Source: an uncultured archaeon
Lineage (GTDB): Archaea > Asgardarchaeota > Lokiarchaeia > Sigyniarchaeales > SOKP01
Length of the DNA stretch: 11,491 nt
Assembly: GCA_964583985.1 (NCBI GenBank)
Contig: CAZOYD010000060.1
Span: 1-11,491 of the forward strand
Direction: 5' to 3'
Shown: one piece after another, positions 2,755 through 10,757 of the stretch
Numbering within the stretch: position 1 is the first letter of the stretch
Layout: every line of letters begins with the position of its first letter
Notes under the pieces: model-generated
What the model was told of the DNA's origin: nothing
The model's database searches: none
The model's input: only the letters and a program-made list of their open reading frames with translations
Translations under genes and position numbers: made by a program

Positions 2755-3798
2755 TTGAATTCCTTAGAATTAACCCTTTCTGCGATTGGAGATATTCCTG
2801 AAAAAATACCATTTAATCCTTTCATAATGCACTTAGCAGCATCATTAATGCACGTTGATTATAATGCTAATTATTGCCGAAAACCAGAGATATTGGCAGA
2901 TGCTCAAATAGGATGCTCTAACTATTTTGGAATAGATCATGTTAATGTTTCAACTGATGCTTATAGAGAAGCTAGTGCTTGGGGTGTAGAAATTGATTGG
3001 ACTAGTCATACGCCTGTAGCAAAAAATCATATAAAGATTTCTGAGTTTGAATCATTAGAGATCCCGGATTTAACTTCAAGCGAACGAATAATGAATCGTG
3101 TAAAAGCAGTAAAACTTTTATCTGAAAAAGTTGGCGGGAACCAATGTATCATAGGATGGATTGAGGCTCCGTTTGCAGAAATATGCTGCCTTTTTGATCT
3201 AGTGAACGTATTGAAATTATGTCATTATAATGATTGGGATAAAAGGATTAAATCATTGATAGACCGTATATTACCCGTTCAAAAAGAGTTTGCAAAATTA
3301 CAAATTGAGGCTGGAGCTGATATTATTGGTGCTGGAGACTCTGCGATCTCTCAAATCGGTCCTAAGCGATATGAGAAATGTTGCTTAGATGCCACAAAAG
3401 ATTTATTTCATTACGTGCAAACTGAAGTCCCTGTTCTTTATCACATATGTGGAGACAATTCGGTCATTGATAAAGAAGGGAATGATATGCTGAAATTAGT
3501 TTCAAGCACAAAAGCTGCTATATTGGATTTAGATTATCAAGTTGATTTGAAGATCGCAAAACAAAAGATTGGTGCAAGAAATTGCATCAGAGGAAACACC
3601 AATACTCAAGTATTGGGAAGCTCAAGTTATTCTGTCAAGGATGTCATGGATGAAGTGGAGAAAACTATTAATAATGGGAAACCTGGCGGAAAATACATGT
3701 ATGCTGCTGGTTGTGAATGGCCATGGGCACCAATTGAACTAGCAAGTCGAAATTTAGGTATTGCAAAATGTCTCGTTGAAACAATGGGAAAGTATTAG
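2755..3798 (+). CDS. Uroporphyrinogen decarboxylase-fold protein, MtaA/CmuA-type methylcobamide methyltransferase (MT2-like)
   Basis: 347 aa, TTG start. Motifs EASAWG, GWIEAPFAE, QIEAGADII, Zn-binding YHICG, RGN and the third Zn ligand in AAGCE. Confidence 0.85.
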   Translation: MNSLELTLSAIGDIPEKIPFNPFIMHLAASLMHVDYNANYCRKPEILADAQIGCSNYFGIDHVNVSTDAYREASAWGVEIDWTSHTPVAKNHIKISEFESLEIPDLTSSERIMNRVKAVKLLSEKVGGNQCIIGWIEAPFAEICCLFDLVNVLKLCHYNDWDKRIKSLIDRILPVQKEFAKLQIEAGADIIGAGDSAISQIGPKRYEKCCLDATKDLFHYVQTEVPVLYHICGDNSVIDKEGNDMLKLVSSTKAAILDLDYQVDLKIAKQKIGARNCIRGNTNTQVLGSSSYSVKDVMDEVEKTINNGKPGGKYMYAAGCEWPWAPIELASRNLGIAKCLVETMGKY

Positions 3799-3802
3799 AA
3801 GA

Positions 3803-5320
3803 TTATTCGATTTTATGACCTCCAATATTAATGGAAATGTTAGATCCATCCAATCCTTCCATTTTCCTATAATCTGCTATAGATCGATGAGAAACTAATT
3901 TTATGTATTCATCTAATTCATTTAAAATACCCGTATTATAATTCGGACCCACCTGTGTTTTCAATATCTCATCAACTCTTTCCTTTGCGATCTCCATTAG
4001 ATCTTTAGATCCATTCCGCATCCATCTTCCACGTTTCTCTCTATTGATCAATGGCGGTACGTATATTTCCTTTCTCGTATTTTTTACAGAATGTTTTGTA
4101 CCAAGGTAATTTTTATTCGTTGAAATTACTTTTTCTATTTCATCTCTGGCAATGGTATTAGAGTTAACATCTATGCCATTTAATCCTCTTTTTAATATTG
4201 CAATCAATTCATCATCAATCACTAATAGTTCTAATGCTTCAGATAAGGATGATTCATAGGTTCCCGCACATGTGATGTAATTATGACCTGCATTTATCGC
4301 TGCTGAAAGACCCATAAATCGTTCATAACCGTTTTGAATGTCAAAACATTTGGAATCTGTTAGTGCTCCAGAACCCTTGGATGGAAATCCATAAAATTGA
4401 GCGAGTTGAGCAGCAGCAATAGTTAATAACGACATTTCCATCGAACCATAAGCAATGTTTCCAGTTAAAGGATCCATGATTGTGTTTGTAGATGCATAGA
4501 GAATTGGCGTGCCAGGATTGATAATTTGCGTTAGTACTATAGTAGAAAGTACTTCCATATTTGCTTGAGTCAATACTCCTGCAAGAGTGACTGGAGCAGA
4601 AGATCCAGCACTTGCGGCAGCACTAATTAATATTGGTTGATTGAATTTTGCAAATACAAATAAGCCGTTCAATAGTATTTTTTCAAGTAATAAAGGTGAT
4701 GTAGGATTAAATACCCCAATCAATCTTGGTTTCTTCAATAACTCTTCTTCTCCGCCAACTATTATTGATGCAAGTCTCATCATATCGGTACTTGCCATCC
4801 TACCATAACAACTCATCCCATAAGGCTTTAAACTATGTTTACCCCACTCTCGGATCGTTTGACAATGCAGTTCTGTAAAAGGGACATCACTCGGCCAGAC
4901 ATCCATGTGGGAGCAATCAATATTATCTAAAGCATTAATAATCCTCAAATGATCGATTGCATCCTTAAGTGTCGCTTTTCTGATACCTTTTTTATTTGAT
5001 GGATCAAGAACATTAATAGCTGCGCCAAAAGTACCGAAATGGACGCTTTTAGTGTTAATATGCATTTTATAATTGCCATCTGGTCCCCATAGTGAAAATT
5101 CGGAGGGAACTTTTTTTAATTGATCTTTAATTAACCCTTGGGGTAACTTCACGAAAAATTCCTTATCTTTTTTTAAAACGGTGGCTCCCTTTTCTTTCAT
5201 TATTTTTCGTGCTTCTTCAGAATCAATCCTGATTCCTACTTCTTCTAAAAGGCTTAGTGAAGTTTCATGAATTTCGGTGATTTCATCTTTTGACAATACT
5301 TCCAATTTACTTAGTTTCAT
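3803..5320 (-). CDS. Trimethylamine:corrinoid methyltransferase (MttB) superfamily, non-pyrrolysine member
   Basis: 505 aa. Motifs IHETSLSLLEEVGI, NPTSPL, AGSSAPVTLAGVL, QIINPGTP, TDSKCFDIQNGYE, LLVIDDE. The residue just before TDSK (pyrrolysine position) is Leu (CTA, 4361-4363) and the frame has no internal amber codon. Confidence 0.93.
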   Translation of the reverse strand: MKLSKLEVLSKDEITEIHETSLSLLEEVGIRIDSEEARKIMKEKGATVLKKDKEFFVKLPQGLIKDQLKKVPSEFSLWGPDGNYKMHINTKSVHFGTFGAAINVLDPSNKKGIRKATLKDAIDHLRIINALDNIDCSHMDVWPSDVPFTELHCQTIREWGKHSLKPYGMSCYGRMASTDMMRLASIIVGGEEELLKKPRLIGVFNPTSPLLLEKILLNGLFVFAKFNQPILISAAASAGSSAPVTLAGVLTQANMEVLSTIVLTQIINPGTPILYASTNTIMDPLTGNIAYGSMEMSLLTIAAAQLAQFYGFPSKGSGALTDSKCFDIQNGYERFMGLSAAINAGHNYITCAGTYESSLSEALELLVIDDELIAILKRGLNGIDVNSNTIARDEIEKVISTNKNYLGTKHSVKNTRKEIYVPPLINREKRGRWMRNGSKDLMEIAKERVDEILKTQVGPNYNTGILNELDEYIKLVSHRSIADYRKMEGLDGSNISINIGGHKIE

Positions 5321-5440: not shown

Positions 5441-6403
5441 ATGAATATAAATTTAGATATGCTCAAAAAACTTGAAAAATCTATTAATACATTGAATCCG
5501 GAAGGCGGGTTAATTCCTATTAATATTCTTGGGTATGGTGAAATTAGTCTAGTATTTGAACTTGTAGATGATCCAGAGAAATTAGCTTATAAAAGGATCC
5601 CCATATTTGATACTGAAAAACAAGTCAAAAGACATATCTGGGCTTATAAGGAGTATAACAGGATTCTAAAAGAAGATATCGGTTTAAATCTTCCAGATTA
5701 TGATGTTGCATGGTTTAAAGATGATAAAGATCACATTCAGTTTTATTGTGTTCAAGAAAAAATACCTGCTGAATCTGTAGGAAATCGTGTAATTCACGTG
5801 TTGCCCAAACAAGAAATTTTCAATCTCATCCTATTAGTAATGAGAGAAATGAAGAAAGTATGGGGTTTCGCTAAGAATAACAAAAAAATTGATGTAGGCA
5901 TTGATGGACAGATCTCTAACTTTGGTGTGATTGGATTCAATCCAAATTCACCAAAAATAGATATGGATACAAGATTGTGCTATTTAGATACCAGTACACC
6001 TATGTTTCGTATAAATGGTGTTGAAGCAATGGAAGCAGTATTATTTTTAAAAAGTACTCCATGGTTTTTGAGCCCACTCGTAAAAGCAGCATTTCTTGAT
6101 GAAGTTATTGATCGTTATTATGATTGGCGGTTGGTTACTATTGATCTAATTGCTAATTTTTTTAAAGAGCAAAGACCTGAACTTATTCCTGGTTTAATTA
6201 GACTAATTAATAAATTTTTTAAGGATGAAGCAAGTGAATTCAATATAGATCCAATTACATTTATAGAAGTCGATAAATATTATAAAAATGATAAGATGAT
6301 CTGGGTAATTTTTCAAAACGCCAGGAAAATTGATAGATACATTAAAACTAAATTAAGTCATAAAAAATATAATTTCTACTTACCTGGAAAAATTAAAAGG
6401 TAG
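5441..6403 (+). CDS. Uncharacterised protein with protein-kinase-like motifs (probably DUF6206 family)
   Basis: 320 aa. LGYGEISLVF (Gly-rich loop-like), LAYKR (beta3 Lys), GIDGQISNF (DxxxxN), CYLDTS (DFG-equivalent). The DUF assignment is from recall and was not searched. Confidence 0.65.
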   Translation: MNINLDMLKKLEKSINTLNPEGGLIPINILGYGEISLVFELVDDPEKLAYKRIPIFDTEKQVKRHIWAYKEYNRILKEDIGLNLPDYDVAWFKDDKDHIQFYCVQEKIPAESVGNRVIHVLPKQEIFNLILLVMREMKKVWGFAKNNKKIDVGIDGQISNFGVIGFNPNSPKIDMDTRLCYLDTSTPMFRINGVEAMEAVLFLKSTPWFLSPLVKAAFLDEVIDRYYDWRLVTIDLIANFFKEQRPELIPGLIRLINKFFKDEASEFNIDPITFIEVDKYYKNDKMIWVIFQNARKIDRYIKTKLSHKKYNFYLPGKIKR

Positions 6404-9887: not shown

Positions 9888-9910
9888 TAAAATAAAATTA
9901 AAAAAAAAGT
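9888..9910 (-). terminator. Oligo-T terminator of the histone gene
   Basis: The minus strand reads TTTTTTTTTAATTTTATTTT starting about 18 nt after the histone stop, typical of archaeal T-tract terminators. Confidence 0.55.
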
Positions 9911-9926
9911 TACAAATAGTAGTTAA

Positions 9927-10181
9927 TTATCTTGTTGCATTTCTAACATCTGCAGCAGATATTCTTTTGCGCTTCTCATTCTTGCAAATTTTGTGCGCTT
10001 CTTTTGTTGCATCTGCTGCTTTAACTTCAAGAAATTCAATCAATTTATCTAATGCTGCAGCAGCTACTAAATCAGCTCCCTCTTTCTTCATCAACCTTCG
10101 AATAGGAGCTTTCGCAATATATGTTTCAGCTTTTGTTTTTTTAGCAGGTGCTTTTTTTGCAGGAGCTACTTTTTTAGCCAT
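9927..10181 (-). CDS. Archaeal histone (HMf-like fold) with a lysine-rich N-terminal tail, 84 aa
   Basis: Residues 22-84 (IAKAPIRRLMKKEGADLV...EAHKICKNEKRKRISAADVRNATR) align without gaps to HMfB 3-65, keeping A6/P7, R10, K13, G16, A17, V20, L28, L32, E33, E42, A43, R52, K53, I55 and D59. Start placed at ATG 10181 rather than GTG 10199 because a GGAGG Shine-Dalgarno lies at 10197-10193. Confidence 0.93.
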   Translation of the reverse strand: MAKKVAPAKKAPAKKTKAETYIAKAPIRRLMKKEGADLVAAAALDKLIEFLEVKAADATKEAHKICKNEKRKRISAADVRNATR

Positions 10182-10192
10182 TTTTATATTTT

Positions 10193-10197
10193 CCTCC
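10193..10197 (-). promoter_or_regulatory. Shine-Dalgarno (GGAGG) for the histone gene
   Basis: CCTCC on the plus strand, 11 nt upstream of ATG 10181, in otherwise very AT-rich sequence. Confidence 0.6.
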
Positions 10198-10262
10198 ACA
10201 ATTTATTGAAATAATACTCTTATAATATAGATTTATAATTAATAATAACTACGAATTTCTAT

Positions 10263-10270
10263 TATATAAA
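10263..10270 (-). promoter_or_regulatory. Candidate TATA box (TTTATATA) for the histone gene
   Basis: Consensus archaeal TATA on the minus strand about 80 nt upstream of the ATG. A second candidate, TTATAAAT, lies at 10231-10238. Confidence 0.4.
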
Positions 10271-10757
10271 TGTTATGGTTCGAAATAGTGGTTATTGGAG
10301 ATCTATTTGATTGAAATTTTTAGATCTGAAATGTACTAAAACTATTAAGACCGACAAAATGCCACTAATAAAATAATTTTTTATTTTTTATTAAATAATA
10401 AATAAAAATTTTCTGATGATTCTATTTTACTCAATTATTGTTTCAATTAGGAAAATCGATCATACTTTAAGACAATCAAAAAAATGATAAACTTATCGCA
10501 ACTTGTAAAAATTAAAAAATGGATTAGTAGGAATTATTTCTAAATTAACTCTAATATTTTCAGAATTTTAATCCTAAAAGAAGATCTCAAAAGTATGATC
10601 CTATTATTGCATTTGAAGCCTAATTGTACATCTTTTCAGCATAGCTCATCATATTTTTCTTCAATACATTTTTTTTTATTTTTTGAAAAATAAACATTAA
10701 AATAGTAAAGGTTTGATAAGATAGATAGAAAAGAAAGATGAGGGTCAGATTGAATTT

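Follow-up and report, generated by a model that had tools for sequence, protein, structure and literature searches.

A tailed histone of the HLoB type in an uncultured Lokiarchaeial family, with a fixed start and a lysine-rich N-terminal tail of variable length

In this study, a histone gene on an 11,491-nucleotide stretch of DNA from an uncultured Asgard archaeon (hereafter the window, meaning the whole stretch that was analysed) was investigated, and we observed that its product is an ordinary new tailed histone of the HLoB family, a phenomenon that is already published and experimentally characterised in close relatives. We consider it highly probable that the protein functions as a nucleosomal-type histone, with a modifiable polycationic tail, and belongs to the tailed (HLoB-type) histones of Lokiarchaeia. 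With reference to the literature, tailed Asgard histones were described in 2018 by Henneman et al. (PMC6136690), were critically discussed in a 2024 review (PMC10919886) and are mentioned in the HHoB cryo-EM paper and a 2026 survey (PMC13260811), and the HLoB and HMpB families were defined in the July 2026 preprint of Cho et al. (10.64898/2026.07.02.735847).

Gene organization and genomic setting

The window corresponds to contig C60 in a 3.8-Mb genome assembled in 138 contigs. This genome is Lokiarchaeial and shares its order with Ca. Lokiarchaeum ossiferum, and the named relatives are all Asgard metagenome-assembled genomes, in agreement with the initial annotation, which had taken the host to be an archaeon. 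The histone gene is read on the minus strand from an ATG at 10181-10179 to a TAA stop codon at 9927-9929, and the GGAGG of its Shine-Dalgarno motif is found at 10197-10193, with a spacing of 11 nt to the ATG (Table 1). The AT-rich stretch further upstream may serve as an archaeal promoter, and in the orthologues a T/A-rich region that lies 42-52 nt ahead of GGAGG is weakly conserved. A scan for sigma-70 promoters, which is not applicable to archaeal promoters, gave about the same number as in shuffled sequence (6 versus 6.5), and the count of hairpin terminators was 0; the run of nine T residues behind the gene is a candidate terminator, as oligo-T runs are in archaeal termination in general.

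There were no Rfam matches in the whole window, and thus the spacer at 10200-10757, about 560 nt with 26% GC between the histone gene and the divergent gene of a TrmB-family regulator, is without a known RNA family; it also harbors no ORF of at least 50 aa. An antisense ORF on the plus strand (9967-10209, 80 aa) was rejected as a gene, being a low-complexity mirror of the histone gene. Elsewhere in the window, an MttB-family methyltransferase gene (PF06253, E 1e-97) is convergent with a URO-D/MtaA-like gene (PF01208) at 2755-5320, and other genes encode a GH3 beta-glucosidase-type protein (550-2592), a DUF6206 protein (5441-6403), a LigT 2'-5' RNA ligase-like protein, a HAD hydrolase, a HIT protein and the TrmB regulator.

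Table 1. Features of the tailed-histone locus, in positions of the window
Feature	Position	Strand	Details and basis
Tailed-histone CDS	9930..10181	minus	84 aa; translation, PF00808 E 2.5e-10, 445 homologues
Lys/Ala/Pro-rich N-terminal tail	10125..10181	minus	codons 1-19, MAKKVAPAKKAPAKKTKAE
15-nt tandem repeat encoding APAKK-APAKK	10137..10167	minus	2.1 copies, 87% match, Tandem Repeats Finder
Histone-fold domain, residues 20-84	9930..10124	minus	AlphaFold2, Foldseek, HMMER alignment to HMfB
Shine-Dalgarno motif GTGGAGG	10193..10199	minus	near-invariant in 72 unique orthologue upstream regions
AT-rich TATA-box-like stretch, candidate archaeal promoter	10209..10232	minus	inferred only, from sequence
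T9 run, candidate archaeal oligo-T terminator	9900..9908	minus	19 nt past stop codon

Distribution and relationship to the HLoB histones

The distribution of the tailed histone was examined across 399 sampled genomes from the phylum at a match threshold of E < ~1e-17. Matches were noticed in approximately 113 of the 133 species genomes of the window's GTDB family, most of them at least 70% identical, and orthologues at this level of identity were confined to that family. All relatives at 47-64% identity belonged to two sister families within the same order, and the other Asgard classes gave only paralogue-level matches or a different tail type, such as the K/E/P-rich tail of G128. Most genomes of the window's family harbor a single match of at least 70% identity plus several weaker histone matches. 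In the window genome, five PF00808 histones were found, the window protein being the only tailed one; the other four, on contigs C2, C30 (two in tandem) and C16, are untailed or carry a MAKK stub only.

Going by submitter labels, the family would extend to Hodarchaeota, Odinarchaeota, Thorarchaeota and Hermodarchaeota, a spread that was rejected because, by their contig positions, the five loci checked (one for each such label) map to genomes of the window's own GTDB family. These mislabelled loci (L011, L015, L024, L066 and L077) are about 80% identical to the window protein, three of them belong to the window's own genus and one even bears the label 'Nanopelagicaceae bacterium'; the labels overstate the taxonomic spread of the tailed histone. 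Three orthologue genes, L129 (G196:C38), L131 (G228:C7) and L132 (G248:C82), were observed to contain frame-breaking inserts of about 30-59 nt, situated exactly at the junction of tail and fold, past the YIAK codons, in G196 and G228, and in the KRKR loop-2 codons in G248, unlike the window histone gene, which is uninterrupted.

For the phylogeny, a maximum-likelihood tree of the fold only (70 columns) was built from the extractable histones of the window genome, of G138, of the single-contig genome G135 (4.36 Mb) and of a further two Asgard genomes at greater distance, the tailed group being labelled by its fold motif 'KAPIRR'. All tailed 'KAPIRR' proteins made up one clade on a long branch (94/97, branch length 1.81), in which the window protein stands together with the three tailed histones from G138 and the three from G135, the untailed paralogues being outside it; as the alignment is short, the finer branching is unreliable. 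G138 (6.04 Mb, one contig), a member of a sister family, encodes the exact published peptides of HLoB.1, RKRVTAADVIAAE, and of HLoB.2, AKKKTPAKK, as well as the exact Loki-B36 HLoB peptide KKAAPKKAAKPATR, and for this reason we call it L. ossiferum-like. In its fold, the window protein is 63% identical to HLoB.2, compared with 41% to an untailed paralogue of the same genome.

The histones HLoB.1-3 of Ca. L. ossiferum B35 thus share with the window protein the same clade of the fold tree, and they also share the YIAKAPIRRLMK..EGA.LVA and KRKR(V/I/L)(T/S)A.D signatures and a K/A/P tail, about 20-25 residues long, that starts with MAKK. Comparatively, the window protein comes from another GTDB family of the same order and has one tailed copy in its genome where L. 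ossiferum has three, its C-terminus reads DVRNATR and not DVIAAE, Cys66 replaces a Val, and its tail is shorter and clearly built of repeats (APAKK twice). HLoB.2 also has P-A-K-K at mature residues 6-9. In mature numbering, A1-K2-K3-V4-A5-P6-A7-K8-K9 of the window protein stands against A1-K2-K3-K4-T5-P6-A7-K8-K9 of HLoB.2, and with this shared register the methylated K9 of HLoB.2 has a positional equivalent in the window protein.

Various results on HLoB make the tail a plausible substrate of modification, as the initial annotation had proposed for acetylation and methylation. The HLoB proteins are abundant, co-localised with DNA and without their initiator Met; lysine acetylation and methylation of their tails were seen experimentally, and the GNAT enzyme LoHAT2 acetylates HLoB, as well as the yeast H4 tail, and the sirtuin LoSIR2b deacetylates HLoB (10.64898/2026.07.02.735847). 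Abundance, nucleoid localisation and tail modification are known only for L. ossiferum and Hodarchaeales strain HC1 (10.64898/2026.07.02.735847), so that for the window protein the proposal is supported by analogy with HLoB. The window genome was found to encode candidate enzymes, with 3 SIR2 (PF02146), 2 SET (PF00856) and 37 GNAT (PF00583) matches, which are assignments at the level of the family only. As a separate observation, contig C16 of the window genome (L128:899-5230, minus strand) harbors six tandem GNAT genes on the same strand (PF13302 Acetyltransf_3, E 1e-20 to 1e-24), placed directly downstream of a MAKK-stub histone paralogue (L128 5018-5230), with one 89-aa ORF without a family match in between.

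Histone fold and assembly

The histone fold of the window protein was recognised by several comparisons. Pfam PF00808 matched residues 24-82 with 40.9 bits (cut-off 21.4, E 2.5e-10), NCBIfam NF043032 archaea_histone gave 45.6 bits, under its 50-bit cut-off, and PF00125, the family of eukaryotic core histones, gave 19 bits, under its cut-off of 26.4 bits. A phmmer search against PDB sequences matched HPhA, HMfB, HMfA and the Asgard HHoB. With a 64-sequence alignment (A1) as input, AlphaFold2 predicted helices at residues 24-33 (helix 1), 41-68 (helix 2) and, as a short helix 3, 76-83, with a pLDDT of about 90, and the top Foldseek matches of this model were HPhA, HMfA/B and HHoB (target TM 0.83-0.90, rmsd 0.7-0.9 A). 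Lower Foldseek matches, with TM of about 0.66, were chains of eukaryotic nucleosome, H3-H4 or CENP-A-H4 complexes, which we take to be H4. The protein therefore has the same fold as the tail-less hypernucleosome histones HMfB, HTkA, HPhA and HHoB (PDB 1A7W, 5T5K, 1KU5, 9QV5-7).

In the HMMER alignment, residue 24 is aligned gaplessly to residue 5 of HMfB, giving an N-terminal extension of 19 residues over HMfB, and the protein ends at the equivalent of HMfB R65, so that helix 3 is four residues shorter. The retained contacts of HMfB are R10 (R29), the R52-D59 clamp (R71-D78) and K53 (K72), and G16 is also kept. In contrast to the HMfB type, two DNA-contact residues are changed, R19 to L38 in loop 1 and T54 to R73, and so are L46, H49 and L62 (to I65, N68 and N81), the residues of the dimer-dimer four-helix bundle that HMfB needs for hypernucleosomes. 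In the tailed clade as a whole, residues 68 and 81 vary and are polar; the His is kept in every untailed paralogue aligned. As the dimer-dimer residues are replaced and the loop-1 Arg is lost, canonical hypernucleosome assembly is not assured; these changes lower the claim of an HMfB-like hypernucleosome and leave the claim of histone identity untouched.

The same substitutions allow another reading, in which the protein is a specialised variant that does not polymerise and builds no hypernucleosomes. It could, for example, cap or delimit histone stacks, or it could pair obligately with the untailed paralogues in heterodimers, and the tail would offset the weakened contacts of the fold with DNA and between dimers. 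The five changed residues and the early end of helix 3 fit this reading, as do the polar residues 68 and 81 where the untailed paralogues have His, the pattern of mostly one match of at least 70% per genome beside several weaker histone matches, and the work of Henneman et al. in 2018, in which the tailed HA of Heimdall, with H49N, was scored as weak in forming hypernucleosomes (PMC6136690). Against it, HLoB.2 has been modelled and simulated in nucleosome-like and hypernucleosome assemblies (10.64898/2026.07.02.735847), and the equivalents of D59, R52, K53, G16 and R10 are retained in the window protein. We therefore regard it as unlikely, with perhaps one chance in a handful. A bolder form of it, to which we give slightly less credit still, is that the single-copy tailed histone, with its DVRNATR end, Cys66, polar residues 68 and 81 and a loop-1 Arg moved to loop 2, caps or punctuates histone stacks in place of building bulk hypernucleosomes, or acts only in heterodimers with the untailed paralogues, and that the slippage-prone length of its (A/P)AKK tail acts as a fast-evolving charge dial for DNA affinity. 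The nucleosomal-type HLoB histone remains our preferred reading.

Cys66 (codon 66, 9984-9986, minus strand) deserves a mention of its own. It lies towards the C-terminus of helix 2 in a KICK or KVCK motif, immediately follows the equivalent of HMfB L46, and is conserved in most tailed histones of the family, while the HLoB proteins of L. ossiferum have Val at this position. According to a survey, Cys is under-represented in archaeal histones (PMC13260811).

Composition and variability of the tail

The tail begins with MAKK, followed by two APAKK units (residues 1-19), and T20 to A23 form the linker between the tail and helix 1. Its Lys residues are at positions 3, 4, 9, 10, 14, 15 and 17, so that the initial annotation was right in its 19-residue tail ahead of the fold (10125-10181, codons 1-19, equal to the HMMER extension over HMfB) and in its count of 7 Lys within residues 1-17, and the first 20 residues contain 6 Ala and 2 Pro with a net charge of +6. 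In the AlphaFold2 model, residues 1-20 are devoid of secondary structure and their pLDDT is about 50, compared with about 90 for the fold, and the tail is thus predicted to be disordered, as had been suggested. At the window's own Lys frequency (9.5%), at least 7 Lys in 17 residues has a probability of about 6e-4; across a whole proteome such Lys richness by itself is unremarkable, and it is the conservation, which greatly exceeds chance, that makes the case.

The protein search gave 445 homologues, of which 120 were listed, 73-90 aa long. Among the 121 unique family proteins that these make up with the window protein, all are tailed and 120 start with MAKK; the comparison of orthologues across Asgard genomes that the initial annotation had proposed therefore found the tail throughout the listed family, with lengths of 9-26 residues and a median of 18. 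The composition of these tails is 39% Lys, 27% Ala and 11% Pro, with no Arg and little Gly. Folds that are at least 89% identical to the window protein carry tails of 13 to 24 residues, and MAKK is the only positionally conserved part, both length and order being variable in the rest. We infer that tail length shifts quickly as units of the (A/P)AKK type are duplicated or slip. What selection appears to maintain is the composition, the charge and the MAKK N-terminus rather than a fixed sequence, and the variable length and order are easier to reconcile with a role of bulk charge than with a site-specific code.

Tails of a comparable kind occur in several other systems. The Asgard histone HA of Heimdallarchaeota/Hodarchaeales LC_3 (PMC6136690) also carries a Lys-rich N-terminal tail of similar length and likewise has no His at the position of HMfB H49 (H49N), less stable hypernucleosomes being predicted for it; it differs in lineage and tail type, with an RRR exit motif where the tails of the window family have no Arg. 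The paralogue sets of Loki and Hod diversified independently according to the 2024 review (PMC10919886). Eukaryotic H2B and H4 tails and the C-terminal domain of H1 are similarly disordered, Lys-rich and Ala/Pro-containing, with Lys residues that are substrates of GNAT and sirtuin enzymes, but there is no alignable sequence between them and the window tail, which has no Arg, little Gly and a length that varies in the family. On bacterial HU, the PAKKA extensions of actinobacterial HupB/Hlp (PMC5683647) provide repeats of the P-A-K-K type that are added to a small nucleoid protein and contain hardly any acidic residues, though the HU fold is unrelated to the histone fold and the repeats are mostly C-terminal, over about 111 residues. 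Judged from the sequences, the likeness to eukaryotic H2B/H1 tails and to bacterial HU PAKKA tails is one of composition only.

This bears on the initial annotation, which had called the tail eukaryote-like and its PAKK motifs typical of eukaryotic H2B and H1 tails. The first description holds for composition only, with PF00125 below its cut-off, no Arg, a clade restricted to one order and disjoint k-mers, and the second fits the SPAKK of H1.5; PAKKA-type repeats occur on bacterial HU too (PMC5683647). That the tail might be a direct homologue or an ancestor of eukaryotic H2B, H1 or H4 tails could be argued from its Lys/Ala/Pro richness, from PAKK-like words in H1 and H2B and from the H4-taken chains as the nearest eukaryotic structures. 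The restriction of the orthologues and of their nearest relatives to three GTDB families, the Arg-free tails of 9 to 26 residues and the sub-threshold PF00125 score all speak against this, and PAKKA repeats arose independently on bacterial HU. Profile score, sequence comparison and published k-mers revealed no homology of the tail to eukaryotic tails, and the review, which finds no k-mers shared between Asgard and eukaryotic tails, argues that tails are easily gained (PMC10919886). We hold descent from a common tail to be very improbable, and prefer to read the disordered polycationic tail as a product of convergence.

Identity of the product and start of translation

Several close relatives are listed at NCBI under the name 'NFYB/HAP3 family transcription factor subunit', and since PF00808 takes in both kinds of protein, a transcription-factor subunit of the NF-Y/HAP3 type and not a chromatin protein may be considered. 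The best structural and sequence matches are the archaeal nucleosomal histones HPhA, HMfA/B and HHoB, there are no extra domains and the label merely follows the name of the Pfam family, all of which leaves this reading with hardly any credibility.

The start of translation was assessed on genomic loci. Of 80 loci, which come from the genomes of different species, 78 have ATG-MAKK in frame with the fold behind GTGGAGG, a motif that is essentially invariant a few bases upstream of the ATG in 72 unique upstream regions. Across the 78 loci, the nearest in-frame stop upstream is found 1 to 23 codons from the ATG, and within 8 codons in most; with its position varying to this extent, no longer N-terminus is conserved. 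Downstream, the next in-frame starts are a TTG at L30 and an ATG at M31, both within helix 1, in line with the initial annotation, which had argued for translation of the tail from its Shine-Dalgarno motif and from the lack of a Met before helix 1. The GC content of the tail codons (35%) is like that of the fold (38%) and unlike that of the 100 nt upstream (17%), which argues that the tail is not AT-rich intergenic DNA read by accident. The conserved start, the Shine-Dalgarno motif and the GC content support a tail that is translated and under selection. A 90-aa GTG-started ORF given by ORF finders was rejected, as its GTG (10199) sits within the conserved GTGGAGG motif. The least credible reading of all, a tail that is an artefact of annotation with translation starting downstream or upstream at this GTG, has on its side that ORF and two database relatives annotated with such extensions (P0003 and P0048), and founders on the place of the GTG in the ribosome-binding motif, on the lack of a conserved upstream extension, on the deletion of helix 1 that starts at L30 or M31 would cause and on the HLoB.2 peptide AKKKTPAKK, which was detected by mass spectrometry and begins at residue 2 (10.64898/2026.07.02.735847).

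Proposed mode of action and significance

For the nucleosomal-type histone that we favour, the following mode of action is proposed. The fold (residues 20-84) would pair with a second histone fold, as homology to HMfB, HHoB and HLoB suggests, and would bind or wrap DNA through R29, the R71-D78 clamp and K72, again by homology. The tail of about 20 residues would be translated from the ATG at 10181 and would probably lose its initiator Met, because Ala comes next. As a disordered polycation (net charge +6), it may then stick out from the particle around which DNA is wrapped, adding non-specific DNA contact and charge neutralisation, and its Lys residues would be exposed to the acetyltransferases, methyltransferases and sirtuins of the same genome. 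Over evolutionary time, the tail would change as short (A/P)AKK units are added or removed.

The tailed histones of Asgard archaea are relevant to the origin of tail-based chromatin regulation before eukaryotes, a relevance already claimed in the initial annotation, and this question is already under experimental study in close relatives, with HLoB of L. ossiferum. To this, the locus makes a modest addition, a near-universal tailed histone in a second large uncultured Lokiarchaeial family (approximately 113 of 133 sampled species genomes), in which the MAKK start and the ribosome-binding site are strikingly constant and the tail quickly changes in length by gain and loss of short repeats.
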